Shown here: piece after piece, positions 72 to 63,063 of the stretch
Numbering within the stretch: position 1 is the first letter of the stretch
How the letters are laid out: every line of letters starts with the position of its first letter
Source: Nannocystis bainbridge
Lineage (GTDB): Bacteria > Myxococcota_A > Polyangia > Nannocystales > Nannocystaceae
DNA: 64,000 nucleotides
Direction: 5' to 3'
Assembly: GCF_028368995.1 (NCBI RefSeq)
Contig: NZ_JAQNDL010000001.1
Coordinates: forward strand, 3,840,001 to 3,904,000
The notes under the pieces: generated by a model
What the model saw: the letters and a program-made list of their open reading frames with translations, nothing else
Databases searched by the model: none
Told to the model about the DNA's origin: nothing
Position numbers and translations under genes: made by a program

Positions 72-145
72 TATGCCCCAAAGGACATGACATCGCGGAC
101 ATGCCCCAAAGGACATGACCTCACGGACATGTCCTCGCGGCCATC
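72..145. repeat. Tandem array of degenerate 14-bp palindromes (TGTCY-N4-RGACA family)
   Basis: CATG cores at 86, 100, 114, 128 (TATG at 72, CATC at 142): exact 14-bp period. Confidence 0.8.
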
Positions 146-950
146 AGGCTCGCAGCGCCGGCCGCTCGCGCGCCGGGGGCAGGGCTGCCACCACGTCGCT
201 CGCGCACGCCTCGAAGCACTTTTTGAAGGCCGTCTCCTGCGTCGGCTCGAGCTGCTTCGCCGCCGCGCGGCGGGACAGGCCCTTGCGGTGGGCGTCGAGG
301 GCCAGCGCGTAGCTGGCCTCCGGCAGCGACAGGCCGGCCCGCATGTTCCGCAGGTCGATCCCGCAGCCGCCGCCGCAGCAGGCGTTCTCGAACATGTACG
401 CGCCGTTGGCCACCCACACGCCGAGCCCGAGGGAGATCGCCGCCAGCTCGGCCGCGGCCTCGCCGTCGATCTGCGCCACCGCGGGGGACTGCGTCGGTTG
501 TATCCACAAGCCGATCCGCCCCAGCTCGCGGGCCAGGTTGCCGAGCAGCAGCGACGGCGCCTTGAACACCTGCGGCATCACCACCAGCGCGAGTTCGGAC
601 CCGCGCACGAACGTGTGAAGCAGGTGCCCCGACGGATCGCCGAGCACCTTGAAGCCCGGCGGTACTGCCGCGTTGCCGGCCCCCGGCGGCGCCAGCGTGA
701 TGTCGACGTCGCCCTGGCCGATGTGCTCCTGCGCGGCGCAGACCAGCTCGAACAGCGCGTCGAGGTCGCGCGGCGGGGCGGCCTTCTTCAGCGGTGACTC
801 GGACACCCACTGCTGCTTGCGCGCCGGTGGCCCCAGGTGGGCGACCACGTCGGCGAGGCTCTGCGCCAGCCACGTGCGAGTCTCGAGGTCGGGGATGAAC
901 TCCGGGGCCTTCGCGGCCCGCTCTCCGAACTGCAGCATGTTCCCCGCCAA
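144..950 (-). CDS. Hypothetical protein (possible degenerate zincin-like fold; Cys-rich CCGGGCG patch)
   Basis: 268-aa ORF with normal protein-like composition; LARELGR resembles a degenerate HExxH; start may be ATG at 938. Confidence 0.65.
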   Translation of the reverse strand: MAGNMLQFGERAAKAPEFIPDLETRTWLAQSLADVVAHLGPPARKQQWVSESPLKKAAPPRDLDALFELVCAAQEHIGQGDVDITLAPPGAGNAAVPPGFKVLGDPSGHLLHTFVRGSELALVVMPQVFKAPSLLLGNLARELGRIGLWIQPTQSPAVAQIDGEAAAELAAISLGLGVWVANGAYMFENACCGGGCGIDLRNMRAGLSLPEASYALALDAHRKGLSRRAAAKQLEPTQETAFKKCFEACASDVVAALPPARERPALRA

Positions 951-1235
951 GATAGCAGCAGCCGCGCGGCTCTGCAGGCGCGTGCGCGACGCCTCGCGGG
1001 CTTGCGGGTCTGCAAGGCAGGTATGACGCCCGTGTCCCGGTCAGCGTCGGCTCAGCATCGGTCGTCCTCGATCGGTCTCGATCGGTCACAGTCGGTCTCC
1101 GCGGGCGGCGTCGCGTCGAGCCCCGCGTCCCGTCGGCTGCACATGCTCGCGATCACCCGCGCGCTGTGCTTCGCACCCCTCGGTGCGCACCGCGCAGTTT
1201 TTTTCTTCTGCGTTTCGAGTAATGTCGATCCTCGG

Positions 1236-1937
1236 GTGATACTGGCCTCGCGTCTTCGTCGGCTCGTCGGTCCGCGCCTCCCAGCGCTGGTGAGTCTGTT
1301 CGTCGCCGCGATGTGGTTCACCCCGGCCCGCGCCGCCGACCGGCACGTCGTGCCCGACATCCGCGGCGAGTCGCAGCCCGAGCTGCGCGCCGGCGCCCGG
1401 CTCGTGCGCCTGCCGCTGACGATCCACGTCGCCACCGGGGCCGACAAGGTCGTGTTCGACCTGCGCCGCCTCAACCGCGCCGTCGGCCGCGCCAACGAGG
1501 CCCTGCGCGCCTCCGGCATCGAGGTCTACGTCGCCCGCGTCGAGCTCCTGCCCGAGGGCTTCGCCGAGATCCGCCACCGCCGCGACCGTCGGCGCCTCTC
1601 CAGCTTCGCCCCGCCCGACGGCACCGTGCACGTGTTCCTCGTCGGCAACCTCGAGCTCGGCGGCACGCTCCGCGCCGACCGCAGCGTCCGCGGCCTCCAC
1701 TGGCGCTACCGCGGCCTGCTCGGCAAGATGCGCAACCGCGAGTACCTCATCGTCAGCAACGACGCCCCCGCCACCACCTTCGTCCACGAGCTCGGCCACC
1801 TGTTCGGCCTCGAGCACGACACCTCGACGCAGAACCTGATGTGCTCCTGCCGCCAGGGCCCGCGCCAGATCTTCACGCTCGACCAGGGCCGGCGCATGCG
1901 CAGCGGCGCCCTGGCCTTCGCCGCCCGCCAGCGCTGA
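1236..1937 (+). CDS. Secreted zinc metalloprotease, metzincin type (matrixin/M12/M43-like)
   Basis: HELGHLFGLEH motif followed by Met-turn (NLM); hydrophobic signal-like segment ending PARA; start uncertain. Confidence 0.8.
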   Translation: MILASRLRRLVGPRLPALVSLFVAAMWFTPARAADRHVVPDIRGESQPELRAGARLVRLPLTIHVATGADKVVFDLRRLNRAVGRANEALRASGIEVYVARVELLPEGFAEIRHRRDRRRLSSFAPPDGTVHVFLVGNLELGGTLRADRSVRGLHWRYRGLLGKMRNREYLIVSNDAPATTFVHELGHLFGLEHDTSTQNLMCSCRQGPRQIFTLDQGRRMRSGALAFAARQR

Positions 1938-2063
1938 GCCCCGAGCCGAGCGCCCGCGGCTCCGCGCCGCAGCGGAAAGCCCCGGCACGCCACGGACGCA
2001 GCGAGCCCTCGCGCTCGTAGCCTCGCTTCAACGCCACGGCACCGTCGAGCACATCCTGCCGGT

Positions 2064-2137
2064 CATGTCCTTGAGGACATTCCCCTCAGAGCATGTTCCT
2101 ATGAACATGCTCCTTCGCACATATCCCGAGAGACACC
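2064..2137. repeat. Tandem array of 14-bp palindromes between convergent genes
   Basis: CAT/CATG cores at 2064, 2078, 2092, 2106, 2120; exact TGTCCTTGAGGACA at 2066-2079. Confidence 0.8.
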
Positions 2138-4018: not shown

Positions 4019-4270
4019 GCGCGGCGCACTCTTGCAACCCCCGCCAGCGCTGTCAACACCCGCACGACATGTCCCAAGGGACATGTCCAGAAGTCGCGAC
4101 CTCGGAGGACGAGGTCCGCCGCGGAGCGAGCGGCGCTCGCTCCGCGGTCCATCACCTGCGACCGAGCGACGGCGACTCGCGGCCCGCGACCCACATCACG
4201 CGACGCGAGCGCTGCCTCGTCGGCGGGACGAGGCGGCCGATGACCTCGCGCGGATCGAGCCGCGCTGGCC

Positions 4271-6436: not shown

Positions 6437-8475
6437 GCGAGCACCTCCAGGCGCTCTTGCACCGCGCCGAGCGCCGCCAGGGCGTCGGCCCCCGCGGCGA
6501 TGAAGACATCGACGCCCGCGGCCGCGAGCGCCTCCCATGAATCCTTGGGCCGGCCGGCCAGCACGATCACGTGCGCGCCCGCGGCCCGCAGCCCCGGCAC
6601 CAGCTCGGGCACCGCCGCCGCGTAGCGAGCGTCGGTCCCGCAGATCACCGCGACCCGGGCCCCGCTGTTGGCGAACCGCGCCGCCGCCACCTGCAGCTCC
6701 TCCGTCGCCTCGACCTCGACCACCTCGAAGCCGCCGACCGGGAAGTACGCCCGCGCGTACTCGACCCGCGGCCGCACCTCACTCGCCGTGCCGAGCGGCA
6801 CCAGAGCGACCCTCGGCTCGCCGAGCGCCGCCCCGCGGGCCCGCAGCGCCTCGAACGGCCCCGCCAGCCGCCCGCGCGCCAGCGGCGTCGCCCGCGGCCC
6901 CGGCCCCGGCCGCCGGAACCCGCCGAGCCCGCGCGCGCCCGTGAACGCAGCTTGCACTTCGGACATGCTCTTAAAAGCATGTCCTTCGGACCATGTCGCT
7001 TGCGACAGGACCTCTCGGACAGCCGCCCCGCCCGCCGTCGCGCCCGAAGAATCACTCGCGGCCGGCACCTTCGCCCCCAGCGGCGGCCCCATCGGCCGCG
7101 TCGCATAGCGGCTCGCGCCGACGATCGGCAGCCGCAGCGTCGCCGCCGCCTGCGCTTGCGCCTGCGCCTGCGCGGCCACCCGCCCCTGCGCCGCGCCCGC
7201 GCGCAGCGAAGCCAGCAGCCCGCCCTCGCGCTCGATCGCCTGCAGCCGGGTCCAGGCCGCCCGCGCCAGCGCATCGGTCGCGCGCTCAATCGTGTGGCTG
7301 CCGCCGGCCGGATCGGTCACCGCCCCCAGGTGCGACTCGTCGCGCAGCAGCAGCTGCGTGTTGCGAGCCAGCCGGCGGCCCAGCGTCGACGGCTCGCCGA
7401 GCCCCTCGTCGAGGCTCGGCAGCGCGATCGAGTCGGCCCCGGCCAGCGCCGCCGTCACCCCCTCCGTCGTCGCGCGGATCAGGTTCACCCACGGGTCGAG
7501 GTTGCTCAGCTCGCGCCGCGACGCCCGCGCGTGCAGCCGCATCACCTGGCCTTCGGGACCGACCCCACAGGCGGCCGCCACCCGGGCCCACAGGCTCCGC
7601 GCCGCCCGCAGCTTGGCCAGCTCGAGCGCCAGGTCGCGCCCGACCGCCAGCACGAACACCAGCGCCCCTGCGGCCGCGTCGACTGTCACGCCCGCGGCCT
7701 GCAGCCCGCGCAGGTGCTCCAGCGCGGCCGCCAGCGCCCCCGCGACCTCGTCGGCCGCGCTCGCCCCGGCCTCGTGCCACGGCGTCGCGTCGACCAGCGC
7801 CGTGCGCAGCCCCGGCGCGTGGGCCCGCGCCCAGCCTGTCAGTTCGGCCATGTCCTCATAGACATGCTCGATCGGCCAGCCGAGCTCCCCCGTCGCCAGC
7901 AGCAGCGCCAGCGGGTCGCCGGCGACCGCCCCACGCAGCTGCCCGGGCGCGACTCCGCGCCGCTGGGCCTCGGCCACCAGCGCCGCCGCGACCGGCAGCG
8001 CCCGCGCCCCTGCGTCGATCACCACCTCGGCCTGCGCCAGATCGATCCCCGCCACCAGCGCCGCGACGTCGGCCGCGCCCGCGACCACCACCCCGGTGCC
8101 TCGCCCGTGCCCGTCATGCGCGCCGCCCGTCAGCCCCGCCGCGATCGCCTCGTCGAGCACGAACCACGCCGCCTCTGTCCCATGAGACAGATCTTCCGCC
8201 GCCGCCGCGCCCGCGATCTTCGCCGCGGCTTGCCGGTACTCCTGGGCGATCGCCCACCCGCGCCTGCCGCGGGCCAGCAGCGGCGCGCGCGGCACCGCGG
8301 CGCCCGCGTCCTCGGCCGTCACCAGCGGCGTCAGCTCGAGCCCCTCCGCGGTGCGCGTCACGAGCTTTTGGGTGGATGCGCCCCCCAGCTCGCGCGTCGC
8401 CAGCTCGCGCCAGGCGTCGATGGTGACCGGTGGGAATCCGCAGAGGCTGTCGCGCGTCGCGTCGTCGTCCGCCAC
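6433..8475 (-). CDS. mutA: Methylmalonyl-CoA mutase small subunit
   Basis: [38 protein letters not shown] motifs; lacks DxHxxG; directly upstream of the large subunit. Confidence 0.92.
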
Positions 8476-10046: not shown

Positions 10047-10440
10047 CATGGCGTAATGGGCATGTCTGTTCGCACATGTCCCTTCGACCCGGCGCTCAGC
10101 AGCATCCATCACCCGGAGCCCGCAAACGTTTCGCGGCGTCCATCCCGCGCTCGTCTCGCGGCTGCGCGTGGCTGCGTCTCCCACCTCGAGCAGACGGAGA
10201 TCCCAGCGGCGCGCTCCCTCGCTTCGCTCTCGCGCGGAGCTCCCGCTCGCTCGCTTCGCCCTCGCGCGCTCCCTCGCGCCCTCGCTCGTCCGCGCGGCGC
10301 TCGCCGTGTCGACCGCCGCGCCGCGCCGCGCGTCCGGTTCAGCGCTCGTGGCGCCCACGGCGTCGCGCTCGCGTCTTCACCCGGGTTGACGGCCCCTGCG
10401 GCCCGGTGATAAGCGAGCACTTAATCAACGACGAGGCGTC

Positions 10441-13396: not shown

Positions 13397-14050
13397 ATGC
13401 GGGCCGACGATCCGCCGGGAGACTTCGCGCGGGTCCGCGAGCTGCTTCAGGGCGCGCCCTTCACCTCGCGGCCGCGATCCGTCGTCACGACGATGCTGCG
13501 CGTCCTGTTCACCGGCGACACCGACACCGAGATCAGCGCGCGCGGGTTCACCGTCAGGTTCATCGGCGGCCGCACCCTGTCGTACGTCACCGAGCCGGCA
13601 GCGGCCACGCTGCACGTGCTGCTGAGCCGCGCGAACATCTGTCCTCGAGGACAGCCGCTCGCGTTCCGCCTCGCCGAGGAGGACGGCCACGCGCTGGTGG
13701 GCTTCGCCGACGCCGCGCGCTGGGTGTGGATCTTCCCTGGCGACGATCTGGTGCTGGTGTCGTTGCGCCGGCCGACATGCCCCGGACCGCCGCCCGCCGA
13801 TCTCCCGCCGCTGCCGCTGCCGACGCCGGTCAAGAAGCTCTACGCCCACCTGGCGCTGCCGCTGCCGTGCCCGTGTTGCGGTCGCTCTGCGACCGTCTAT
13901 CGCGCGGCCCCGGATGCGTGGATCTGCGGCGACCCGCGTTGCGGGCGATCGTTCAGCCCGCCGCAGCGGACCCGCGCGCTCGCGGAGCTGCGCGAGGACG
14001 CTGGCGTCGTCGTGCGCGAGTCGAGCGCCCGCCCGAAGATCTACCGCTGA
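13397..14050 (+). CDS. Hypothetical protein with C-terminal zinc-ribbon (CPCC...CGDPRC)
   Basis: 217-aa ORF 1 nt after the upstream stop; two Cys pairs near the C-terminus. Confidence 0.6.
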   Translation: MRADDPPGDFARVRELLQGAPFTSRPRSVVTTMLRVLFTGDTDTEISARGFTVRFIGGRTLSYVTEPAAATLHVLLSRANICPRGQPLAFRLAEEDGHALVGFADAARWVWIFPGDDLVLVSLRRPTCPGPPPADLPPLPLPTPVKKLYAHLALPLPCPCCGRSATVYRAAPDAWICGDPRCGRSFSPPQRTRALAELREDAGVVVRESSARPKIYR

Positions 14051-16523: not shown

Positions 16524-16851
16524 GACGGGCTCCTTGTCAGACCCCTTGAGCAGGCATCGGACCGTGACCATGATGGCTTGCTGGATCTGCGTCATTCCGC
16601 GGAGTTGAATGGCTTTGCCCGGGGAAGAATGCAGCTTTGTTCTTATCCTTTGCTATCTACCGGTAGACGACCGTCGCGCGCGCGGATGAACACATGTCTC
16701 TTGGGTCACCTCGCATCGCACGCACGTCGACGCCTGCAGACCGCGGAGCACATGTCCTCCGAGACAGCCGGTCGCGCGTTGGGTTCTCGGATGTCCCTCG
16801 GGACAGGCCTGCGTCGCGCTACGCCTGACCTTCGAGACAGCTCGCGGAGCG

Positions 16852-17997
16852 TCAGCGCTTCGGCGCGTCGGGCTTGCCGTCGAGGTCGGGGCGGCCGTCG
16901 AACAGGTCACGGCCCACGGCGACCGCCCGGTGGATCATCGCGTTGAGCGAGCTCGAGCGGGCCAGGTCGGGGTGGCGGGCGCACACGTGGTCCACCACCT
17001 GCTCCACCTTCACCGCGCCGTCCTGCTTCAGCTCCTGCAGGATCGCCAGCAACATCCGCTCGCTGCGTTCGCGCTCGTCCTGCTCGCGGCGGCGCACCAC
17101 GATCGCACGGGCCAGCAGCAGCCCGAGGATCACGACGATGAGCGCGAGGATCCACGCGATCGTCTCGCCGACCTTCGCGCCCTTGCTGAGCGTGCCGTCG
17201 ATGCGGCCCCAGAAGCGCTCGCGGAATTTTTCGTATTGCGGGTCGGTCTCGACGCGGTCGAGGGCATCGACCGCGCCGAGCAGCGCCTCGCGGCTGACCT
17301 CGCGCGACACCTTGCCGGCCGCCGGCGCGAGCTCGGTGTTCAGCGCGTCGCGCAGCGCCGGCGCCAGGTCCTTCTCGATCGTGTGGCGCAGCGCCGGCCC
17401 GACGTTGTCCTCGACCACCCGCTGGATCGCCGGCCCGACGTTGCGCTCGAGCACCGTCTGCGTCGCCGGCCCCAGCTCGTCGCGCAGGCCCTCGCTCAGG
17501 GTCGTCAGCGTCCTGCGCGTCAGCGCCTCGGCCAGGTTCGCCGCGCCGCGCCGCGTCGCCGGTGACAGCGCCGCCTGGATCGCCTGCTCGACCGCGCGGC
17601 GGCTGGTCTCGACCACCGCGGGGCTCACGTCCTCGCGCAGCCCCTGGCCGACCGCCTTTGACAGGGCGCCGACGAAGTCCTCGCTGAACTGGCGGACCTT
17701 GGCCAGGCGCTGCGGTTCGGTCAGCCCGTCGAACGCCCCGGCCGCCACCTGCTCGGCCAGGTCGCGCGCCGCTTGCTGGACCTCGGGCAGGTCGAGCAGC
17801 CCCTCGATGCGCCGCTGCACCTTCGGGTCCTCGAGCGTCGTCAGCGTCTCGTCGATGCCGGCCGGCACCGCGCGGCGGATCATCCGCTCGGTGGCTGTCC
17901 CGCAGGACATGTCCCCAAGGACAAGTCCGAGCAGCAGCGCGGAGGCGCGCGGCCCGGCCGACCTGCGGCCACCTGCGCGCGCTCGCGGGACCATCAC
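16852..17997 (-). CDS. Hypothetical helical membrane protein or lipoprotein
   Basis: 381-aa ORF; hydrophobic N-terminal stretch ending in Cys; amphipathic helical repeats; one C-proximal TM helix. Confidence 0.7.
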   Translation of the reverse strand: MMVPRARAGGRRSAGPRASALLLGLVLGDMSCGTATERMIRRAVPAGIDETLTTLEDPKVQRRIEGLLDLPEVQQAARDLAEQVAAGAFDGLTEPQRLAKVRQFSEDFVGALSKAVGQGLREDVSPAVVETSRRAVEQAIQAALSPATRRGAANLAEALTRRTLTTLSEGLRDELGPATQTVLERNVGPAIQRVVEDNVGPALRHTIEKDLAPALRDALNTELAPAAGKVSREVSREALLGAVDALDRVETDPQYEKFRERFWGRIDGTLSKGAKVGETIAWILALIVVILGLLLARAIVVRRREQDERERSERMLLAILQELKQDGAVKVEQVVDHVCARHPDLARSSSLNAMIHRAVAVGRDLFDGRPDLDGKPDAPKR

Positions 17998-19528: not shown

Positions 19529-19631
19529 GGTCTCCTCGGGTCGCGCGGCCCGCGGCGGCTCGCCAGTCGTCGCCGCGAGCGCGCGAGCGCGCCAATCACA
19601 TGTCTCTCGGGACAGCCACGGGCGAAACGGC

Positions 19632-25690: not shown

Positions 25691-26836
25691 GTGACCCCCG
25701 AGCTGCGCGCGCTGGCCTCCCGCGCCCTGGCGATCGAGCATGTCCCTGAGGACATGCTCTTATGGACATGTCTTAAAATTCATGTGATGTGCGCGGCGGT
25801 CTGGCGCGTCGACTCCCCCGCGGGCGCGATCGTCCTCAAGCAGCACCGCCACCCGCGCCCGTTCGCGCAGGAGCTGCAGGCCTATCGCGACTGGCTGCCG
25901 GGCCTGCTCGACGCGCGGGACGCTCCTCACCTCCGCGGTCCGTCGGACTCGCAGCAGCCTCACCACCGCGGTCCGTCGGACTCGCAGCAGCCTCACCTCC
26001 GCGGTCCGTCGGACTCGCAGCAGCCTCACCTCCGCGGTCCGTCGGACTCGCAGCACCCTCACCTCCGCGGTCCGTCGGGCCCGCAGGAGCCTCACCTCCG
26101 CAGTTCATCGGACTCGCACAGTCCCCTCCTCGGCCTGCCGGAGCCGCTTCCTCCCGCGCCCGCGCGTGAACCTGGCGTGCATGACCTGCTCGCCGTTCGT
26201 GTCCCCGCGCTGCTCGCCAGCGATCGCCGCAGCCTGGGCCTCGCGCTGTCCGCCGCGCCCGGCGAGCGCCTGTATCTCGGGACACATGATTCTCCCTCGA
26301 CCCTCGCCGCCCACGCGGCCGCGGGCCGGTTCCTCCGCGCCCTTCACCAGCTCCCCGCCGTCGACGACGATCCCATCCCGCTCGTCGCCGCCGTCGCCGC
26401 GCGCCTCGACGCCTGGCACGCCCGCGCCCGCGACATCCTGAGCCCGGCCGAGCGCGACGCGCTGCAGCGGCTCGCCGCCCGCCGAGACGCCTTTGCCGGC
26501 GTGCGCCGCGTGCCCTGTCATCGCGACTTCACCCCCGACAACTGGTTGCTCGCCGGCGATGCCCTGCACGTCCTCGACTTCGAGCACGCCCGCCTCGACG
26601 CCGCCGAGGCCGACCTCGTCAAGCTCTGCGCCGACACCTGGGCCGAGAACCCTGCGCTCGCCGAGGCCTTCCTCGCCGGTCACGGATCGCTGGACACCGA
26701 CGCCGCCGCCCGCCTCGACGTCCTGCTCGCCCTGCACGCGGTGGCCACCCTGGCCTGGGCCGAACGCCACGCCGACCCGGACTTCCACGCGCTCGGCCGC
26801 CGCGCCCTGGCCGTCGCGCTCGACCGTGTCACTTGA
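25691..26836 (+). CDS. Aminoglycoside phosphotransferase / choline kinase-like protein with an internal tandem repeat
   Basis: CHRDFTPDNWL (Brenner motif) and VLDFEHA; LRALH. Confidence 0.85.
   Translation: MTPELRALASRALAIEHVPEDMLLWTCLKIHVMCAAVWRVDSPAGAIVLKQHRHPRPFAQELQAYRDWLPGLLDARDAPHLRGPSDSQQPHHRGPSDSQQPHLRGPSDSQQPHLRGPSDSQHPHLRGPSGPQEPHLRSSSDSHSPLLGLPEPLPPAPAREPGVHDLLAVRVPALLASDRRSLGLALSAAPGERLYLGTHDSPSTLAAHAAAGRFLRALHQLPAVDDDPIPLVAAVAARLDAWHARARDILSPAERDALQRLAARRDAFAGVRRVPCHRDFTPDNWLLAGDALHVLDFEHARLDAAEADLVKLCADTWAENPALAEAFLAGHGSLDTDAAARLDVLLALHAVATLAWAERHADPDFHALGRRALAVALDRVT
25925..26122 (+). repeat. 33-bp coding tandem repeat x6 (PHLRGPSDSQQ)
   Basis: cctcacctccgcggtccgtcggactcgcagcag repeated with few mismatches. 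Confidence 0.95.
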
Positions 26837-36998: not shown

Positions 36999-37019
36999 CG
37001 TAGCGAGGACGCCGCGGGC

Positions 37020-39143: not shown

Positions 39144-39848
39144 TCACGCGCCGGTCATCTGCGCCCACGCGTCCACCGCCAGCCACGTCGTGCTCGTCGC
39201 CGCGAACGGCATCACCCCCAGGCACGGCAGCCCGCTCGCCGCCGCGATCACGGCCGGGTTGTGGGTGCGCGCCGCGTCCGGGCTGCTGTGCGTGTCGACC
39301 AGGAAGAACCCACGCGGCGGCAGGCCCAGCGCCCGCAGGCCGAAGATCGTCAGCAGCGCGTGGTTGACCCCGCCGAGGCCGAGGCGGCCGACCACCACCG
39401 GCGCCGCGGCCAGCCCGGCGATCCACGCCGGCAGCCACGTCCCGCCGGGCATCGGCACCCACAGCCCGCCCGCGCCCTCGATCAGCGTCACCGCGGGCCG
39501 GTGCTTCGCCTCGAGCGCCTCCATGGTCCTTCGGACATGCCCGATCGGCCCTGTCTCTCGCAGCATGTCCTGGGAGACATCCAGCCGCGGACCCTGCGAG
39601 AACCTCTGCGCGTCCTCGACGATGCCGGGCGCCAGCGGCTCGGCGAAGCGCAGCGGGCAGATCTCGCTGGCGGTCACGCCGAGGTCGCTGGCGGCGGCGA
39701 GGCGCTCGGGGTCACCGCTCGGCCCCTCGGGTCCGCTCGCGGCCGGCTTGAACGGCAGCGCACGCAGGCCCGCCCCCGCGGCCGCTCGCAGGAGCGCGCA
39801 CGCGAGGGTCGTCTTGCCGCAGTCGGTGTCGGTGCCGACCAGGAACAC
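39144..39848 (-). CDS. bioD: Dethiobiotin synthase
   Basis: GTDTDCGKT, FKP, IEGAGGL, LGGVNHALLT; true start may be slightly upstream. Confidence 0.92.
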   Translation of the reverse strand: MFLVGTDTDCGKTTLACALLRAAAGAGLRALPFKPAASGPEGPSGDPERLAAASDLGVTASEICPLRFAEPLAPGIVEDAQRFSQGPRLDVSQDMLRETGPIGHVRRTMEALEAKHRPAVTLIEGAGGLWVPMPGGTWLPAWIAGLAAAPVVVGRLGLGGVNHALLTIFGLRALGLPPRGFFLVDTHSSPDAARTHNPAVIAAASGLPCLGVMPFAATSTTWLAVDAWAQMTGA

Positions 39849-49175: not shown

Positions 49176-49180
49176 CGGCC

Positions 49181-49260
49181 TGTCCTCGGGGACATGCCCC
49201 CGGGAGCATGCCCGAGCGAGCATGTCCCGCGAGACATGTCCACGGCGACATGTCCCGATT
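49181..49260. repeat. Tandem array of 14-bp palindromes between convergent genes
   Basis: CATG at 49193, 49207, 49221, 49235, 49249. Confidence 0.88.
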
Positions 49261-49269
49261 GTCGGCCGC

Positions 49270-51805: not shown

Positions 51806-53047
51806 ATGGCCGAGACGCCGCAGGACCCGAAGATCGAGCCCACTGAAGCCAGCGCCGTCCCGCCCGCGCCGCCCGTGCCGCCCGTGGGCACGCCGACCGC
51901 CGCGCTGAGCCCCGAGCTGCAGGTCGCCGCCGCCGAGCTGGCGCAGGTCGGCGACGAGACCGGCGAGCCTGTCGATGTCCCCAAGGACATGACGGCCGGC
52001 GAGATCGCCACCGTCAAGCGCTTCGCCAGGTTCCGCGCCTTCTTTGCCAAGCACGGTCACCTGCTGTGGTGGCTGCACTCGGCCTACGCCATGACCTTCG
52101 GCGCGTTCGTCATGATGTACGCCGCCGAGGGCTACGACCGCGCCCGCTGGATGGTCGTGCTGTTGTGCGCCGGCTGGCTGGTGATCGTCATGTTCTTCCG
52201 CCACTTCGGCCAGGGCCGCGGGCAGAAGGACAGGGTCACCGACGCCAAGTCGAAGCTGCGCTTCTACGTGATGACCACGGCGCTGAAGAACCTCTACCAG
52301 AGCATGCTGTTCTTCCTGGTGCCCTTCTATTGGAAGGCCGCCACGCTCGACGCCGACAACCGCTTCTTCCTCTACCTGCTCGGCCTGCTCGCGCTGCTGT
52401 CGACCGTCGACGTCGTGTTCGACCAGGTCTTGATGCGCTACAAGGCCCCGGCCTCGGTCGTCTACCTGTTCATCCTGTTCGCCTGCCTCAACCTGGTGTT
52501 GCCGGCGATCTTCCCTGACACGCGCACGCTCGTCACCTTGCTGGCCGCAGCCGCGCTGGCGACGGTGGTGTTCTTCACCATGCACGTGCCGTTCAAGAAC
52601 CTGCTCAAGCCGGCGTGGTTCTTCGCCCTGGTGGCCGCCGTCGGCATGGCCGTGTTCATCGCCTACGCCGGCCGGCGCGGCATCCCGCCGGTGCCGATGT
52701 ACGTCGCCGTCGGCGCGGTCGGCCCGACCCTCTTGCCCGACGGTCGCCTCAGCATGCACGTCAGCGCCCTCCACGAGTCGCTGATCACCGAGATGCACGC
52801 GATCACCGACGTCGTCACCCCGGGCGGCCGCGGCGACAACCTCCTGCACGTCTGGCGTCACCGCGGCCTCGAGGTCCAGCGCGGCGCCAGCGAGCCCGCC
52901 GTCGACCCACCGCCCGGCAGCGTCCGCCTGCGTTCCACCTTGCGTTCGTTCCACATCCCCTCGGACCGCACCGGCCCGTGGAGCATCGACGTCGTCACCG
53001 AGGACGACCAGTTGGTCGGGCGCGTCGAATTCGAGGTCATCCAATGA
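51806..53047 (+). CDS. Multi-pass membrane protein with C-terminal DUF2914-like domain
   Basis: About 8 TM helices; LLHVWRH...GPWSIDVVTEDDQLVGRVEFEV. Confidence 0.78.
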   Translation: MAETPQDPKIEPTEASAVPPAPPVPPVGTPTAALSPELQVAAAELAQVGDETGEPVDVPKDMTAGEIATVKRFARFRAFFAKHGHLLWWLHSAYAMTFGAFVMMYAAEGYDRARWMVVLLCAGWLVIVMFFRHFGQGRGQKDRVTDAKSKLRFYVMTTALKNLYQSMLFFLVPFYWKAATLDADNRFFLYLLGLLALLSTVDVVFDQVLMRYKAPASVVYLFILFACLNLVLPAIFPDTRTLVTLLAAAALATVVFFTMHVPFKNLLKPAWFFALVAAVGMAVFIAYAGRRGIPPVPMYVAVGAVGPTLLPDGRLSMHVSALHESLITEMHAITDVVTPGGRGDNLLHVWRHRGLEVQRGASEPAVDPPPGSVRLRSTLRSFHIPSDRTGPWSIDVVTEDDQLVGRVEFEVIQ

Positions 53048-54330
53048 CGAGCGAAGTCCGCGTCCGCCCCCCACCCGGCCCGATCTTGGCCGCCCTCACC
53101 CCGCCTGGCTCGAAGAGCCTGACCAACCGCGCGCTTGTCCTTGCGGCCATGTCCGAAGGGACATCCATGCTGCGCGGCTGCCTCGACTCCGAGGACACCC
53201 AGGTCATGCGCGCCGCGCTGGCCCGCTGCGGCGTCGTCTGCGAGGCCAGCGAGGACGCCAGCGAGGTCCGCGTCACCGGCGTCGGCGGCCCGCTGACGCG
53301 CGTCGACGAGCCCGAGCGGCCGATCGACGTCGCCACCGCCGGCACCGCCGCTCGCTTCCTCGCCGCCGTGTTCGCCGCCTCGCCGATCACCTGCCTCGTC
53401 GACGGCAGCGCGCGCATGCGCGAACGGCCCATGGAGGGCCTCCTGCAGGCTCTGCGGGCCCAGGGCGCCGACATCCGCTGCACCGCCGCCGAGGACATGT
53501 TGCCGTGCGAGATCCGCGGCGCTCGCCTGCGCGGCGGCGAGATCCGCCTCGCTCGCCCGCCCAGCTCCCAGTTCATCTCCGCCCTCCTGATCGCCGCCCC
53601 GCTCGCCGACGCTCCGCTGCGCATCGTGCTCGAGCAGGGCACCCCCGCGCGGCCCTACGTCGACATGACCCTCGCCTGCCTGCGTGACTTCGGGGCCGAC
53701 GCGCGCTGGCTCGAGCGAGATGTGCTCGAGGTCAGCCCCACCACCTTGCGCGGCCGCGACTACCACGTCGAGCCCGACGCCTCCGCCGCCACCTACTTGC
53801 TGTCGCTGGCCGCGATCTTCGGCGGCGAGGTGCGCGTCCCCGGCCTCGGTCGCGCCAGCCAGCAGGGCGACACCCGCTTCTGCGACGTGCTCGGGCGCAT
53901 GGGCGCGAGCGTCCTCCAGGGCCCCGAGATCACCCTCGTGCGCGGCGCCGGCACCCTGCACGGCGTCGACCTCGACCTCTCCGACATGCCCGACACCACG
54001 CTGACCGCCGCCGTGCTCGCGCTGCACGCCGTCGGGCCGACGCGGATCCGCGGCGTCGAGGTCCTGCGTCACCACGAGAGCGACCGGATCGCCGCTGCCG
54101 CCACCGAGCTGCGCAAGCTCGGCGCCGAGGTCGTCGAGCACGAAGACGGCCTCGACATCACCCCGCCGGCGCAGATCGTCGCTGGCGCCGCGATCGACAC
54201 CTACCGCGACCACCGCGTCGCCATGGCCTTCAGTCTCGCCGGCCACGTCACGATCCGCGACCCCGGCTGCGTCGCCAAGACCTTCCCCAAGTACTTCGAG
54301 GTCCTCGCCGGCCTCGGCATGGTCGAGTGA
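53044..54330 (+). CDS. aroA: 3-phosphoshikimate 1-carboxyvinyltransferase (EPSP synthase)
   Basis: PGSKSLTNRAL, AGTAARF, MRERP, SSQFISALL, LRHHESDRI, DHRVAMAF, CVAKTFP. Confidence 0.96.
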   Translation: MTSEVRVRPPPGPILAALTPPGSKSLTNRALVLAAMSEGTSMLRGCLDSEDTQVMRAALARCGVVCEASEDASEVRVTGVGGPLTRVDEPERPIDVATAGTAARFLAAVFAASPITCLVDGSARMRERPMEGLLQALRAQGADIRCTAAEDMLPCEIRGARLRGGEIRLARPPSSQFISALLIAAPLADAPLRIVLEQGTPARPYVDMTLACLRDFGADARWLERDVLEVSPTTLRGRDYHVEPDASAATYLLSLAAIFGGEVRVPGLGRASQQGDTRFCDVLGRMGASVLQGPEITLVRGAGTLHGVDLDLSDMPDTTLTAAVLALHAVGPTRIRGVEVLRHHESDRIAAAATELRKLGAEVVEHEDGLDITPPAQIVAGAAIDTYRDHRVAMAFSLAGHVTIRDPGCVAKTFPKYFEVLAGLGMVE

Positions 54331-55658
54331 GCGTGCGCGCCGGCGACCTCGTCACCGTCGACCTCGAGGTGCTCACGCCCGAGGGCGACGGGCTGTCCGA
54401 AAGCACAGGTACTTCGGTCCATGTCCCCGGGGTTTATCCCGGCGAGCGCGCCGAGGTCCGGGTCGAGCACGTCTCGCGCCAGACCCCGCGGGCCCACGCC
54501 CGCCTGCGCACGCTGCTGCAGGCCCACCCGGCCCGGGTCGCGCCGCCCTGCCCGCACAGCGACGCCGGCATCGCCCCCCGCCGCGGCGCCTGCTCCGGCT
54601 GCCCGCTGCAGGCCCTCGACCTCGCCGCCCAGCGCGAGCTCAAGCGCGCGGCTCTGGTCCGCCGCCACGGCCTCGACCCCGGCCCGCTGGTCGCCGGCCC
54701 CGACGCCTGGGGTTATCGGTGGTCGAGCAAGCGGATCATCACAGGTACTTCGGGACATGTCCTCGTGGGCAGCTACCACCGCGGCTCGCACGCCCCGGCC
54801 GCCATGAATGACTGCCGCGTCGACCACCCGAGCATCGCCGCCGCCGCGCGCGAGCTGCAGGCCGCCGCCTCGGCCCTGGCGATCGTCCCCTACGACGAGG
54901 CCACCGGCAGCGGCGACCTGCGCTACGCCTGGTTCAAGACCGACGGCCGGGACGTCCTCCTCACCCTCATCACCGCCGCCAGCCCGAGCCCCGCGGCCGA
55001 GCTGCTACCCGCCGCCCTGAAGCTGCCCGCCGGCGTCGCCTGGAGCGTGCAGGCCGGCCGCGGCAACGCCGTGCGCGGCGAGCCGCCCGTGCAGCTGCGC
55101 GGACGACCTGTCCTTTCAGTCAGCCTCGCCGGCGTCCCCGTCGAGGTCGGCCCGCTCGGGTTCTTGCAGCCCAATCCGCGCGTCGCCGAGCTCGCCTATC
55201 GCGACCTCGTCGCCGACGAGGCCGGCGCCCCGCACCGCGGCAAACTCGCCTTCGACCTCTACGCCGGCGCCGGGGTGACGACTGCCTTGCTGCGGCGCGA
55301 GTTCGCCGAGGTCGTCCCGTGCGAGGTCTACCCCGAGAGCGCCGCCGCGCTGGGCGTCCCCGCCGAACCCGCCGAGGTCTTCCTCGCCCGCCAGCAGGCC
55401 GAAGGTCGCCACCCCGAGCTCGTCGTCGCCAACCCGCCGCGCGGCGGCATGGGCCCCGCCGTGTGCGCCGCCCTGGTCCGCCAGGCCGCCCCGCGCCTGC
55501 AGATCATGAGCTGCAGCGCCGACGCCCTGGTCCGCGACCTCGCCACGCTGCAGGCCGGCGGCTACGTCCTCCGCCGCCTGCGCGCCTACGACACCCTGCC
55601 CCACACCCCACACCTCGAGCTCGTCGCCTGGCTGTCCCACGGGACAGGCGACGACTGA
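54327..55658 (+). CDS. RlmD/RumA-family RNA m5U methyltransferase (TRAM and Fe-S motifs)
   Basis: CPH...CSGCPLQ, FLQPN, DLYAGAG, NPPRGG, MSC, LPHTPHLE. Confidence 0.88.
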   Translation: MSVRAGDLVTVDLEVLTPEGDGLSESTGTSVHVPGVYPGERAEVRVEHVSRQTPRAHARLRTLLQAHPARVAPPCPHSDAGIAPRRGACSGCPLQALDLAAQRELKRAALVRRHGLDPGPLVAGPDAWGYRWSSKRIITGTSGHVLVGSYHRGSHAPAAMNDCRVDHPSIAAAARELQAAASALAIVPYDEATGSGDLRYAWFKTDGRDVLLTLITAASPSPAAELLPAALKLPAGVAWSVQAGRGNAVRGEPPVQLRGRPVLSVSLAGVPVEVGPLGFLQPNPRVAELAYRDLVADEAGAPHRGKLAFDLYAGAGVTTALLRREFAEVVPCEVYPESAAALGVPAEPAEVFLARQQAEGRHPELVVANPPRGGMGPAVCAALVRQAAPRLQIMSCSADALVRDLATLQAGGYVLRRLRAYDTLPHTPHLELVAWLSHGTGDD

Positions 55659-55765: not shown

Positions 55766-55810
55766 CATGTCTTTCGGAACATGCCCCCACGGGCATGTCC
55801 CTTAAAACAG
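55766..55810. repeat. 14-bp palindrome array between convergent genes
   Basis: CATG at 55766, 55780, 55794. Confidence 0.7.
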
Positions 55811-55812
55811 CA

Positions 55813-56469: not shown

Positions 56470-56975
56470 GAGGGCTGTCTAGCACTCGCAGCGGCTTGAA
56501 GTCGCGCTCGGCGGGAGATCCGGAACTGTGGGACAGATCGTCGTGTGGATGCACACGATTGCATCGCAGCGCCAGGCGGCGGCCGACGCACGCATCGCAG
56601 CGCGTGTCGACTTCGCGACTGCGAAGCTCGCGACGAATGCAGCGCGCTCCGCAGTCGTGATGCGGCGCGGCGAGTCAGCACACGAATTGTCCCGAAGGAC
56701 AGGTTGCGAGCCGCCGGCCGAGCGCCGAGAGAAGTCGTTGAACATCGCCGTAGAACGCCGTTGGAGCCCGAAATTCCGCGATCCGTGCGAGCGCACACGC
56801 GTGCGCGTCCACACGGTTTTGCGACGATCCATGACGACTTCGAGAGTCGCGCGACGATCGCCGATGTTCGCCAAGCAGCTCCCCCGGCCCACCGCACGCA
56901 TCGCGCGAATCGTGCGAGAGCACACGATGCACAGCGGCACACGAAGCGACGAGCCCATGTAATTTTTTGTCTGCG

Positions 56976-61034: not shown

Positions 61035-61107
61035 GTCCTGAGATCCTTCCGTGTCTCTCGTTGTTGTCGCTGTCCGAAAGTACTTGTCCGAACGGTCACC
61101 CGCGGTG

Positions 61108-62184
61108 TCACCCGCGGTGGACGAATACCTTGATCATGTGCCACTCGATGAGGGTCACCTGCTCGGGCGTCACCTTCATCTCGTTGTCGTCGACCATGCG
61201 GCGGATGACCTCGACGACCTCGCCCTCGCTGGTCGGCGGCGCCTTCTCGACCTCCGACAGCTCGTGGCACTGGCTGCACACGCTCTCGTAGGTCTTGCGC
61301 GCGGCGACCTCGTCGACCGGGCGCGGCGCGGCCGGCTCGGTCGCGGTGGCGACGGCCTCGGCCGACGGCGGCGGCGCGGCCAGGGCGGCGTCGGCCTGCA
61401 CGCGCTGCTCCTCCTGGGCCCGGCGCTCCTTGAGCGAGCGCTGGAGGTCGCGCGAGATGGCGATCATGTAGGCCGTGACCTGCCAGCCCTCGAACTCGGA
61501 GATCGGCTCGTTGAAGCTGGGCTTGATGACCATGCGGTCGACGGTGCCGACCCAGTCGAGCGGCGAGCGCGGCCGGTCGAGGATCGTCTTGAGGTCGTGG
61601 CAGGCGACGCACTTCTTGAGCAGCACCTGGCGGCCCGCCTGCAGCGAGTCGACCGTCGACAGCTCGTCGACCGGCGCCTCTTCAGGCAGCTTGGCCGACT
61701 CGAGCAGCCGCTTCACGCGGGCCCGGTTGTCGTCGCCGTAGACGTCGCCCATCTCGCTGGCGAGCACCATCTCGCGGAACGCGTGCGGCATCGACAGCCC
61801 GGCGAGCATGATCGTGCATACCAGCAGCGCCGTGCCCAGCGCCGGCATCCACTCCTCGAGGTGGCGGAAGAACCGCAAGATCGCCACCTTGACCAGCAGG
61901 ATGAAGCCCACCCCCATGCCGAGGCACATGTGCGCGACGGTCCGCGCCGGCCACTCGACCTGGTAGTTCCACATCCGCGGCACCATCTCGAACATCAAGA
62001 CGATGTAGATCAGGACGTAGAACCACCCGAGCTGTCGGTGCAGCCGCATCAGCGACGGCGGGGCCGCGCTCGTGCGCGTGGCTTTGTCGAACGGAAAGCC
62101 CCAGAGGTAGTACATCAGGAACACGGCAGCCGTGCCGACGACCAAAAACAGGAGCCCGAGCGAGGCGCTGAGAATGACGTCCAT
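61108..62184 (-). CDS. Membrane-bound di-heme c-type cytochrome with His-bearing TM domain
   Basis: Four TM helices with His (LHRQLGW, VAHMCLG); CVACH and CSQCH heme-c motifs, each followed by RM. Confidence 0.85.
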   Translation of the reverse strand: MDVILSASLGLLFLVVGTAAVFLMYYLWGFPFDKATRTSAAPPSLMRLHRQLGWFYVLIYIVLMFEMVPRMWNYQVEWPARTVAHMCLGMGVGFILLVKVAILRFFRHLEEWMPALGTALLVCTIMLAGLSMPHAFREMVLASEMGDVYGDDNRARVKRLLESAKLPEEAPVDELSTVDSLQAGRQVLLKKCVACHDLKTILDRPRSPLDWVGTVDRMVIKPSFNEPISEFEGWQVTAYMIAISRDLQRSLKERRAQEEQRVQADAALAAPPPSAEAVATATEPAAPRPVDEVAARKTYESVCSQCHELSEVEKAPPTSEGEVVEVIRRMVDDNEMKVTPEQVTLIEWHMIKVFVHRG

Positions 62185-62202
62185 GTCGTTCGCCTGCGCC
62201 CA

Positions 62203-63063
62203 TCATAACCCCGGGCCGTGCGCCCCGGCGAGGGCGTACAGCAGGATCGCGGTGGCGGCCGCGACCCCCAGCGAGTCGACCCCCGGGCGCATCGGGATCG
62301 CGACCTCGTCGTCGCCGACCGCGCGCAACGCCGCCGGCAGCCCCTGGCCCTCGCTGCCGACCAGGATCACCAGCCGCGCCGGTCGCACCACCGCCCCCAG
62401 GGGCCGCGCTCGCGGACCGGGCGTGGCCGCCAGCACGGTGGCCCCCGCCCCGCGCAGCCGCTGGACCGCCCCGACGAGGTCACCGACGCCGAGGGTCGCC
62501 TGGGCGAACACGTTCCCGGCCGCGGCGCGGATCGCCCGCCGACTCAGTGGGTCCGCGCCGGCGCGGTCGAGCAGGAGCAGGTCGACGCCAAAAGCCCGGG
62601 CAGCCCGGACGATGGCGCCGACATTGGCCGGGTCGGCCAGGCCCTGGGCGAGCAAGACGGTGTACGCCGGGCGCCCGGCGACATCTTCTAAAAGGGTGTC
62701 CTCGAGGACAGGTTGACGATCTGTCTCCGGGGACATGTCATTCCAGCGCAGCCCCGCAGGCCGCAGCCCGCAGGCCGCGACGCCGCGGTGGAAATTCTGG
62801 CCGACGGCCTGCCGCAGCACCGCCTGCTCGCCGACGTAGACCGGGACCTCGGGCCGGGCCGCCAAGATCGGCGCGAGCCGCTCGCAGTGACTGGCCGTCG
62901 TCAGCACCGAGGCCACGCCGTAGTCGCTCCGCAGCAAGCGCTCGACCACCAGCTCGCTCTCGGCGACGAAGCGGTGCGGGTCGGAGCGGTGAGCGAGCGC
63001 CTCCAGAGCCCTGTAGTCGGCGAGGCGCGGGTCGTCGGGATCGTCGACGCGAACCGGGATCAT
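62203..63063 (-). CDS. TrmH/SpoU-family RNA 2'-O-methyltransferase
   Basis: DPANVGAIVRAARAFG, VGSEGQGL, IPM...VDSLGV. Confidence 0.92.
   Translation of the reverse strand: MIPVRVDDPDDPRLADYRALEALAHRSDPHRFVAESELVVERLLRSDYGVASVLTTASHCERLAPILAARPEVPVYVGEQAVLRQAVGQNFHRGVAACGLRPAGLRWNDMSPETDRQPVLEDTLLEDVAGRPAYTVLLAQGLADPANVGAIVRAARAFGVDLLLLDRAGADPLSRRAIRAAAGNVFAQATLGVGDLVGAVQRLRGAGATVLAATPGPRARPLGAVVRPARLVILVGSEGQGLPAALRAVGDDEVAIPMRPGVDSLGVAAATAILLYALAGAHGPGL

Follow-up and report, generated by a model that had tools for sequence, protein, structure and literature searches.

A 14-base palindrome, TGTCYNNNNRGACA, recurs along a 64,000-nt stretch of the Nannocystis bainbridge genome (the window, GC 0.70-0.74), which raises the question of what kind of element it belongs to and what reads it. 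A scan of the window revealed 29 exact matches in total, and these are the 29 positions listed in a preliminary description of this DNA. Dinucleotide-preserving shuffles (n=100) contained 0.06 matches on average and 2 at most, with 29 or more in 0/100, so the strong enrichment claimed earlier is real. The 11.05 Mb genome carries 2,982 exact copies, and 1,173 copies were observed inside genes, as predicted by a crude GC3-based gene caller made for this analysis. A codon-aware null, which the preliminary description had suggested, left the genic copies unexplained: synonymous-codon shuffles keeping every protein gave 29-39 copies and codon-order shuffles 3-13 (n=5 each).

Extension of the palindrome outward revealed R-C-A/C at its left and the mirror image at its right, which had been missed before; the 14-base palindrome is one face, or sub-variant, of a larger repeat element. 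The repeat unit is CATG-YCC-N4-GGR-(CATG), 14 bp in length, or an 18-bp palindrome if both CATG are counted. As CATG is its own reverse complement, adjacent units share it and stack head to tail every 14 bp. CATG-to-CATG distances peaked at 14 (3,736), 28 (2,073), 42 (1,586), 56 (751) and 70 (383), compared with 72 off-phase distances at 13 and 262 at 15; this phase-locking of the arrays at 14 bp had likewise been overlooked. The spacing of the arms is rigid, with 2,828 occurrences of arm-N4-arm vs 93 for N3 and 54 for N5, and 1,771 arm-N0-arm junctions vs 28 for N1. Half-sites are found overwhelmingly in inverted pairs of this rigid spacing. Calling units at a PWM score of at least 12 bits yielded 8,248 units genome-wide (about 0.75 per kb) vs 105 with the reversed matrix used as control, and the units group into 4,380 arrays of 1 to 16 units each. 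The arrays and units in the window are the following:

2064..2123: four-unit array (PWM units 2064, 2078, 2092, 2106; includes the previously listed site 2066) in the gap where ORF 837-1937(+) and an Hsp70-family gene, 2138-4084(-) (Pfam HSP70), converge
4068..4085: single unit overlapping the Hsp70-family gene in its start region; two relatives (G005, G007) keep the arms, the loop differs
6964..7009: three-unit array, in frame within the methylmalonyl-CoA mutase ORF 6433-8475(-); the length of the stretch varies between species
7849..7866: unit within a gene (site 7851); 6/6 genomes are identical in CATG and arms, loop variable
8176..8189: solitary unit within a gene, CTGTCC...GACAG type; 6 genomes keep the arms, loop variable
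10047..10078: two units after the pentapeptide-repeat gene 8538-10046(+), beginning 1 nt past its stop
13640..13653: solitary unit within a gene; 5 genomes have identical arms despite differing flanks
16753..16805: two units in the gap after a Ro60-like gene; at the orthologous place in relatives, with indels around
17896..17923: two abutting units with the common junction ...GGACA/TGTCC..., conserved in 6 genomes
19601..19614: single unit, conserved amid indel-rich intergenic sequence
21734..21751: unit inside the TPR/peptidase-MA gene 20267-23101(+); 6 genomes keep the arms, with CCGG or TCCG as the loop
23104..23191: six-unit array, beginning 3 nt past the stop at 23101
25739..25784: three-unit array past the ORF that ends at 25687; 6 genomes retain the CATG register
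26825..26905: units 26825, 26841, 26874 and 26888 in a gap otherwise unalignable between species
33484..33731: scattered units 33484, 33544, 33674 and 33714 in the long gap beside a cytochrome P450 gene
35707..35724: unit where ruvX and yceG meet, conserved in 6 genomes
36913..37000: six-unit array, beginning 4 nt past the yceG stop (36909) and convergent with 37020-37778(-)
39522..39581: units 39522, 39536 and 39564; arms largely kept in relatives
49179..49252: five-unit array filling the convergent gap 48255-49175(+) / 49270-49803(-); the alignment to relatives, read by eye, has a gap of about one 14-bp unit
51974..51991: unit with conservation in 6 genomes, whose right-hand CATG may contain the true start codon of the downstream gene
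53134..53165: two units within the EPSP synthase gene, with no differences among 6 genomes
55633..55646: solitary unit near the end of 54327-55658(+), 12 nt ahead of its stop
55766..55811: three-unit array that borders directly on the stop codon of a HAD hydrolase gene, 55813-56469(-); the only part of its convergent gap that aligns in 6/6 genomes, besides the first ~20 columns at the upstream gene end
56688..56701: solitary unit between divergent genes; 6/6 genomes keep the arms, with four different loops among them; one C-to-T change in G003, still within the Y of the pattern
62697..62735: two units 25 bp apart, both present in 6/6 genomes

Genome-wide, arrays occupy 53-67% of short convergent gaps, 14-22% of tandem and 1-6% of divergent ones. 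For gaps of 40-200 bp, units were found in 466/773 convergent, 289/1,574 tandem and 21/490 divergent gaps, and unit density differs 30-50-fold between convergent and divergent gaps of this size. A unit follows the stop codon within 150 nt in 2,232 of 7,846 genes and precedes the start within that distance in 707; the first unit begins 0-24 nt past the stop in 1,264 of 2,078 cases. About 2,000 units lie inside genes. Across all contigs, units are present in 53/53 bins of 200 kb (43-246 per bin), and on contig C3 their density remains high across the GC-skew switch. The distribution is tied to gene ends rather than to chromosome position, a pattern that is also that of REP/BIME-type repeats. Judged from sequence, the family seems to mark the 3' ends of transcription units.

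Comparison of six species showed conservation of the arms and CATG, while the loops drift. In units inside genes, arm third-codon positions were identical in 344/376 comparisons (background: 94,909/113,004) and A/T third-codon positions in 113/134 (84%; background: 2,112/5,798, 36%); loop identity was 83/130. Purifying selection on CATG and arms, with a freely drifting 4-nt centre, is well supported, also for the ~2,000 genic units. Of the 35 intergenic units in the window, 24 could not be aligned to relatives. Where gaps can be aligned, the arms are conserved and the loops and the remainder of the gap have diverged. In the clearest cases, compared by eye, arrays are found at the same place in all six species; those at 49179 and 55766 keep their place in the relatives with mostly different loops.

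The perfect 18-mer was detected in 10/10 other Nannocystis genomes, the large ones carrying 180-369 copies depending on the species. In one sister genus (g2) it occurs in 5/5 genomes with 2-6 copies and in another (g20) in 7/7 genomes with 1-43 copies, and it was found in 0/50 genomes of 14 other genera. The repeat family is mainly one of the myxobacterial genus Nannocystis, present at low copy in two sister genera; the motif had been called lineage-specific and undescribed, and the literature searched contained no description of it. Several of the five sites in G011 and G043 (genus g2) lie in AT-rich non-coding flanks, and when a regulator was sought next to the low-copy sister-genus sites, abundant DUF4215 genes were all that turned up. 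A low-copy operator-like site, still present in the sister genera, is the probable origin of the family.

We tentatively favour, at somewhat less than an even chance, a REP/BIME-like, CATG-tagged family at the 3' ends of transcription units that would be read by a dimeric protein on duplex DNA. The putative reader is probably dimeric: a two-fold symmetric protein would recognise the arms with one dimer per unit, so that dimers would coat an array at 14-bp intervals. Coated in this way, the array would flag where the transcription unit ends; it could halt RNA polymerase from both directions or insulate against it or, alternatively, anchor supercoil-relaxing enzymes between converging genes; units would be kept out of promoters because binding there would harm. 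Unit number may change by slippage on the repeated CATG, to judge from one array (49179-49252). The geometry, namely rigid spacing, lack of covariation and strand symmetry, is a better fit to a reader with two-fold symmetry than to a plain hairpin. There is no covariation between Y5 and R14 (Watson-Crick pairing 0.754 observed vs 0.712 expected), and their C/A plus T/G combinations number 695 vs 146 for C/G. Loops have no strand preference (e.g. TTCG 14 vs CGAA 13), and 4,586 units, when oriented by the upstream gene, give a nearly mirror-symmetric logo. The homodimer-site geometry proposed in the preliminary description agrees with these data. Against a protein roadblock, sites within ~2,000 genes seem costly, and the convergent >> tandem >> divergent gradient would equally be expected of a tolerated selfish repeat or an RNA hairpin.

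A role at the RNA level is possible but doubtful. As the 3' untranslated regions of transcripts, arrays would fold into a series of short hairpins; these would terminate transcription or stop exonucleases that work 3'-to-5', perhaps together with a hairpin-binding protein. As the DNA is palindromic, the same hairpin would form whichever strand is transcribed, a good match for convergent gene pairs, and the onset of arrays directly past stops and their orientation gradient are consistent with it. A 5-bp stem had earlier been judged too weak, an argument undercut by the arrays, in which stems of 7 bp and several hairpins are available. The folding energy of the 49170-49270 array is -51.9 kcal/mol (z = -3.7 vs shuffles), and unit-bearing convergent gaps have the largest structure excess over shuffles (-0.143 kcal per nt); since unit-free convergent gaps also fold better than shuffles (-0.056 kcal per nt; divergent gaps -0.007), RNA structure is general among 3' ends in this genome. 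Canonical intrinsic terminators are not enriched (3 vs 4.9 in shuffles; 20 kb scanned). On the sense strand, the middle arm pair is more often T/G than C/A (171 vs 88 in convergent, 122 vs 64 in tandem gaps), which is the direction expected of G-U wobble in RNA and counts against a duplex reader. However, pairs 4 and 5 lack this asymmetry (71:75, 107:78, 67:60, 138:145), and mismatched Y5/R14 combinations outnumber the compensated C/G pair. The stem sequence itself is conserved beyond pairing and no T-run was found 3' of the units; a plain hairpin requires neither a loop fixed at four nor the absence of strand bias. Units inside genes show conservation at synonymous sites, and it is not obvious what a 3'-end hairpin would do there.

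That the family is a selfish, non-autonomous REP/MITE-type repeat without host function, gathering after genes where insertion is harmless, we regard as unlikely. High copy number, narrow lineage and species-variable counts would fit, as would a 3'-end bias like that described for REPs in the text of PMC3733652, and orthologous arrays differ in unit number. Y1/RAYT transposases were, however, detected in 0/11 Nannocystis genomes, while the control search found them in 6/14 well-known genomes, and 1,922 array ends revealed no conserved flanks or terminal repeats beyond the units. Identical loops occur in 3.5% of adjacent units vs 1.6% of random pairs; neighbours are nearly as unlike as random pairs, which suggests that the arrays are old. 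The co-location of the clearest arrays in six species, although most intergenic window units cannot be aligned, and the selection on arms and their synonymous A/T sites also speak against it.

The preliminary description had favoured an undescribed chromosome-marking system, such as a nucleoid protein site or a modification target. On this reading, unlinked to transcription, the motif would be bound by a nucleoid or segregation protein or modified by an enzyme acting at CATG. Symmetric arms with a free centre and rigid spacing, sites in every 200-kb bin and selection inside genes too are compatible with this, but we consider it decidedly unlikely: the sites follow gene ends with the strong convergent bias given above, the arrays abut stop codons, and their density persists across the GC-skew switch. 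Their number is about two orders of magnitude above that of known organisation sites. Of that interpretation, enrichment, lineage specificity and dimer-site geometry are supported, while even chromosome marking and the weak-stem argument are not. An uptake-signal-like molecular drive, with a half-site favoured in DNA uptake or recombination and fixed by bias as with DUS or USS, would match the density, the lineage-specific motif and the conserved synonymous sites of units both genic and intergenic, but is highly improbable: half-sites come overwhelmingly as rigid pairs, and such a drive gives no reason for avoidance of divergent gaps or for phase-locked, stop-hugging arrays of up to 16 units.

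Among known systems, matS, Noc NBS, SlmA SBS and parS are short palindromes with dimeric protein readers, as proposed for the Nannocystis family. They number tens of sites confined to chromosome regions, whereas the Nannocystis sites, which had been likened to them, number thousands, are found in all bins and are concentrated directly past stop codons. Cyanobacterial HIP1 is also a lineage-specific, hugely over-represented and partly genic palindrome, but it is an ungapped octamer that is not known to have phased arrays or a 3'-end bias, in contrast to the gapped Nannocystis palindrome with its free centre, arrays and strong gene-end bias. TRIT of Mycobacterium tuberculosis is similarly a repeated conserved-sequence hairpin at gene ends in a high-GC bacterium with scarce canonical terminators; its copies number about a hundred-odd, and it is not known to form phased arrays. 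A palindrome of 18-20 bp whose 4-bp centre is free recalls the operator of a dimeric transcription factor, and genus g2 has only 2-6 perfect copies per genome; unlike an operator, the Nannocystis element has thousands of sites, arrays and almost none in short divergent gaps.

The closest likeness is to the REP/BIME elements of enterobacteria and pseudomonads. Both are high-copy short palindromes, mostly extragenic and often clustered, located 3' of coding regions, favoured between convergent genes and in part genic, as far as described in PMC3733652. According to the same text, REPs lie predominantly downstream of coding regions and sometimes inside genes, with proposed roles in termination, mRNA stability and supercoiling; its main text contains no match to Myxococc, Sorangium or CATG. 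Units are 14 bp (18 with both tags) in Nannocystis vs 20-40 bp in REPs, and the REP tag is GTAG, whereas the Nannocystis tag CATG is palindromic and present at both ends. Because adjacent units have this tag in common, Nannocystis arrays are locked to a 14-bp phase, unlike REPs. GTAG-tagged REPs come with RAYT transposases, which were found in none of the 11 Nannocystis genomes, and the missing covariation of arm positions is a further difference from REP/BIME. The CGTC-tagged REPs (Di Nocera et al. 2013), a palindromic super-family, differ in tag and unit length but share, on the account in PMC3733652, a conserved tetranucleotide tag and the apparent lack of a dedicated transposase. The Nannocystis family resembles enteric REPs without their transposase.

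All 29 coordinates that the preliminary description had given for a 14-bp palindrome were exact matches to TGTCYNNNNRGACA (29/29), and the window, with a GC content of 0.70-0.74 across its length, holds no further exact match. The strong enrichment it had claimed was borne out: 100 dinucleotide-preserving shuffles of the window gave a mean of 0.06 copies and a largest count of 2, and a whole-genome scan revealed 2,982 exact copies in the source assembly (11,048,555 bp, 5 contigs), in which the window spans C1:3,840,001-3,904,000. Genes were predicted with our own GC3-based caller, on whose coordinates all figures for gene position rest. Exact copies within predicted genes numbered 1,173, compared with 29-39 in five protein-keeping synonymous-codon shuffles and 3-13 in five shuffles of codon order. 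As these codon-aware nulls lie far below the observed number, the enrichment is real inside as well as between genes.

Sequence around the 2,982 copies showed that the palindrome extends past the 14-mer, the left flank reading R, C and A/C and the right flank their mirror image, and many exact copies abut further copies with the arms TGCCC or GGGCA. Genome-wide distances from CATG to CATG peaked at 14 bp (3,736), 28 bp (2,073), 42 bp (1,586), 56 bp (751) and 70 bp (383), compared with 72 cases at 13 bp and 262 at 15 bp. Aligned in register, the units displayed C-A-T-G, Y (T 57%, C 31%), C, C, four free positions (the loop), G, G, R (A 61%, G 25%) and the next CATG. Since CATG is its own reverse complement, units stack without a spacer, the end of one 18-bp palindrome being the start of the next. 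The spacing between arms is rigid (N4 in 2,828 cases, N3 in 93 and N5 in 54), and arms of adjoining units meet at N0 in 1,771 cases versus 28 at N1.

Units were scored with a position matrix of 18 columns at a cut-off of at least 12 bits, which detected 8,248 units in the source genome and 105 when the same matrix was run backwards; 4,560 of 7,160 CATGTCC words lie within scored units. The units form 4,380 arrays (2,577 singles, 842 doubles, 354 triples, 265 with four units, 225 with five, 95 with six and a few longer ones reaching 16), 1,803 of which hold at least two units. At ten of the 29 window sites the unit stands alone and has C-C-T-G in place of CATG on its flanks; as such units escape the matrix, its count is a lower bound. 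At about 8,000 units, the family makes up about 1% of the 11-Mb genome. Logos of 1,922 array ends showed no conservation past the last unit, which rules out a larger mobile element, and no T-run after units or arrays was seen in the flank logos. No long-range pairing between units of one array was found in 45 sampled of the 260 arrays with at least five CATG.

Besides the genic copies, 1,776 exact copies are intergenic and 33 straddle a gene boundary; coding sequence makes up 83% of the genome. The longer arrays are nearly all intergenic. A unit lies within 150 nt after the stop in 2,232 of 7,846 genes, versus 707 of 7,846 with one within 150 nt before the start, and the first unit starts no more than 24 nt from the stop in 1,264 of 2,078 cases. 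For units in tandem gaps, the upstream stop is a median of 41.5 nt away and the downstream start 217 nt. Among gaps of 40-200 bp, 466 of 773 convergent, 289 of 1,574 tandem and 21 of 490 divergent ones are occupied. No pattern was seen among the units listed in divergent gaps of the source genome, and stop codons showed no preference (TGA in 84% of genes with a unit after them and in 82% of those without).

Occupancy of intergenic gaps and unit density by gene orientation
Convergent gaps: 197/372 occupied at 40-100 bp, 269/401 at 100-200 bp; 18-21 units per kb
Tandem gaps: 104/734 occupied at 40-100 bp, 185/840 at 100-200 bp; about 4 units per kb
Divergent gaps: 2/197 occupied at 40-100 bp, 19/293 at 100-200 bp; 0.4-0.6 units per kb

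Individual sites and neighbouring genes of the window were recorded separately:
4068-4085 and 51974-51991, units whose outer CATG, in alignments judged by eye, seems to be the source of the neighbouring gene's ATG start
6433-8475 (-), methylmalonyl-CoA mutase ORF, with a 3-unit array at 6964-7009 in frame and inside the span of the Pfam match
14060-14188, Y RNA-like gene (Rfam YrlA, 74.5 bits)
14666-14813, tRNA-like Rfam match (30.1 bits, just above the cut-off)
14970-16595, Ro60-type gene (TROVE and Ro60 vWA domains), directly adjoining the YrlA-like and tRNA-like matches
48255-49175 (+), metallo-beta-lactamase-fold protein (anti-Pycsar Apyc1 family, 68.2 bits versus a curated cut-off of 50), immediately preceding a 5-unit array

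The stretch around 6964-7009 is about 148 bp longer in G007, the sole relative aligning there, and this array may be a repeat that is tolerated or used as a protein linker. Taken as a whole, the segment 14060-16595 (-) resembles the Ro-Y RNA modules of bacteria, here in a myxobacterial genome. Elsewhere in the assembly, an identical array of seven CATG was found at the start of contig C2 (about 839) and, reverse-complemented, near the end of contig C5 (about 716603); these contig ends probably overlap or have a common repeat.

The window is syntenic with five other species, with about 85-93% identity in coding blocks. CATG and arms are the same in all species whereas the four central bases differ, for example at 7851, 8176, 13640, 17896/17910, 21736, 35709, 56688 and 62697/62722. 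In the convergent gap 55660-55815, the 3-unit array adjoining the stop is the sole stretch that aligns in six genomes, save the first approximately 20 columns, which are the end of the upstream gene. For 49179-49252, three of the five relatives could be aligned, each with an array in the corresponding position; loops compared by eye mostly differ, and a gap opposite the source genome corresponds to about one 14-bp unit (by eye, in an alignment that is fragmented there). Alignment succeeded for 34 of the window's 58 matrix units (23 genic, 11 intergenic); the 24 unalignable ones were all intergenic. Arm and CATG columns were 0.84-1.00 identical versus 0.67-0.89 for loops in the 23 aligned genic units, and 0.53-0.94 versus 0.12-0.41 in the 11 aligned intergenic units. 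A larger measurement covered 225 kb against two relatives (G001 and G010), with 154 units and 106 genic unit-by-relative comparisons.

Identity at third-codon positions in the 225-kb comparison
All third-codon positions: arms 344/376 (91.5%); gene background 94,909/113,004 (84.0%)
A/T third-codon positions (disfavoured in the genome): arms 113/134 (84%); gene background 2,112/5,798 (36%)
Loop third-codon positions: 83/130 (64%)

Fisher p-values overstate the significance of arm conservation, because the comparisons have common ancestry, but the effect size is still large. These alignments argue clearly for purifying selection on the repeat arms, including synonymous sites in genes. Loops were identical in 3.5% of adjacent unit pairs versus 1.6% of random pairs; neighbouring units are thus barely more alike than random ones, and most arrays are therefore old, with arms kept and centres randomised. 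Arrays may lengthen or shorten in 14-bp steps through slippage on their repeated CATG.

A search of bacteria and archaea at one genome per species with the perfect two-unit pattern matched only four records, all Nannocystis, including N. pusilla Na p29. Across 73 genomes of the order, copies of the perfect 18-mer CATGTCC-N4-GGACATG were tallied. The 18-mer occurs 369 times in the source genome and is present in 10/10 other genomes of the genus (180-266 copies in five large assemblies), in 5/5 genomes of the sister genus g2 (2-6 copies) and in 7/7 of genus g20 (1-43 copies), whereas none of 50 genomes from 14 further genera of the order has it (0/50). The backwards 18-mer was found in this set as one copy in a single genome. 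With one mismatch allowed, 11 phased two-unit arrays were detected in one g20 genome (G048) and none in the other four genomes searched alongside. The picture is that of an old low-copy palindromic site which multiplied massively in Nannocystis and, to a modest degree, in a part of g20. In two g2 genomes (G011 and G043) several sites lie within AT-rich non-coding flanks, and among 20 sister-genus loci around perfect sites, two shared loci carry the motif within coding sequence. Public sequencing runs containing the window stretch were mainly soil metagenome DNA, RNA-labelled rows having small shares (0.06-0.16).

A binding protein was sought through the genes adjoining these 20 loci, and nothing specific was found. 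Genes with DUF4215 cysteine-rich repeats adjoin the perfect palindrome at four of the 20 (L040, L041, L046 and L052, all in g2). The DUF4215 family is abundant in myxobacteria; this only family at 4/20 loci may be there by chance and was dropped as a lead.

Taken together, the repeats very probably constitute a REP/BIME-like family of new architecture, which acts where transcription units end (3') and whose reading is sequence-specific. Y5 and R14 showed no covariation (Watson-Crick pairing 0.754 observed versus 0.712 expected from the margins), the middle arm pair being T/A in 1,987 cases, C/A in 381, T/G in 314 and C/G in 146. Loop positions were not complementary past expectation, loops had no strand preference, and when 4,586 units were oriented by the gene upstream of them, their logo was a near-perfect mirror image. 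Because of the exact spacing, the missing covariation, the non-complementary and strand-neutral loops, the mirror-image logo and the conservation of arm sequence beyond pairing, we favour reading of the DNA duplex by a symmetric protein. Such a dimeric protein might coat the arrays on DNA and stop or insulate transcription, or manage supercoils between converging genes, a mechanism that we put forward tentatively as a real possibility.

An RNA-hairpin mechanism for the arrays seems less likely to us. It draws on the position of arrays directly after stops, on one array that folds strongly (-51.9 kcal/mol, z = -3.7), on the excess structure, relative to shuffles, of convergent gaps that bear units (-0.143 kcal per nt; -0.056 in unit-free convergent gaps and -0.007 in divergent gaps) and on the middle arm pair, where the sense strand has more T/G than C/A (convergent gaps 171:88, tandem gaps 122:64). 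This T/G excess could also stem from a transcription-linked C-to-T bias; pairs 4 and 5 showed no strand bias of this type. The arrays are not canonical intrinsic (Rho-independent) terminators, because the T-run is lacking, and this class was ruled out. A simple consensus scan detected 3 hairpin-plus-T terminators in 20 kb versus 4.9 in shuffles, none of them at an array, and no Rfam family was found at arrays in the window, where the YrlA-like gene and the tRNA-like match were the sole Rfam hits.

The analogues suggested in the preliminary description fared less well. Regional chromosome-organisation sites of the matS, NBS, SBS or parS type do not fit repeats that occur in 53/53 bins of 200 kb, at 43-246 units per bin and with no macrodomain pattern of density. 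On contig C3 the GC skew flips from about +0.09 to -0.09 at approximately 1.4-1.6 Mb, suggesting a likely origin or terminus, and unit density stays high across this switch. HIP1 is ungapped and evenly spread, whereas the Nannocystis palindrome is gapped with a free centre and has a density of about 0.25 units per kb in genes versus 18-21 per kb in short convergent gaps. Beyond the analogues suggested there, the repeat also does not resemble a DUS/USS uptake word: its half-sites occur as inverted pairs with rigid spacing, and hardly any short divergent gaps contain a unit.

The DNA-duplex reading can be extended to a 'terminator code', which we regard as rather improbable in this full form. 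Here, one dimeric DNA-binding protein would act on CATG-phased arrays after about a quarter of genes and provide stop or insulation in both directions, the arrays taking the place of the RNA-hairpin terminators of other bacteria. The approximately 2,000 conserved genic units would be further sites of this putative protein, and its ancestral low-copy operator would survive in the sister genera.

Small palindromic repeats located at the ends of genes are known chiefly from proteobacteria; there, RAYT, a Y1 transposase tied to GTAG-tagged REP repeats, explains their spread and a host function is debated. The Nannocystis repeat is a comparable family without RAYT and with an unusual self-overlapping architecture, and offers a good test case for whether repeats of this sort serve the host as tools or are parasites. 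The family bears on the ends of transcription units in very GC-rich myxobacteria, in which textbook terminators are scarce, and its arrays are candidate parts, as terminators or insulators, for the engineering of natural-product clusters in myxobacteria. No description of the repeat was found in the literature searched, subscription journals and supplements being outside its scope, nor by term search in PMC3696898 and PMC3372372.

The Y1 (RAYT) transposase family PF01797 was detected in 0/11 genomes of the genus, including near-closed ones, while the same search hit 6/14 controls; this absence and the CATG tag rule out membership in the RAYT-driven REPs. REP super-families are defined by two tags, GTAG and CGTC, and their units measure 20-40 bp (PMC3733652); the main text of that article, its supplements being beyond reach, has no match to Myxococc, Sorangium or CATG. 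Like REPs and BIMEs, the Nannocystis family is high-copy, short and palindromic, mostly extragenic and downstream of genes, rare in divergent gaps and clustered. In contrast to them, its unit is shorter (14/18 bp versus 20-40 bp; PMC3733652), its arrays are phase-locked at 14 bp, which BIMEs are not, and it carries CATG as a tag on either end (C-C-T-G in solitary units) instead of GTAG or CGTC on one end. With its fixed half-site spacing, the palindrome also resembles the operator of a dimeric transcription factor; however, its sites number thousands and not tens per genome, and they are not placed at promoters (21/490 short divergent gaps). An operator-type low copy number, as in g2 with its 2-6 perfect copies, may hold for the ancestral state.
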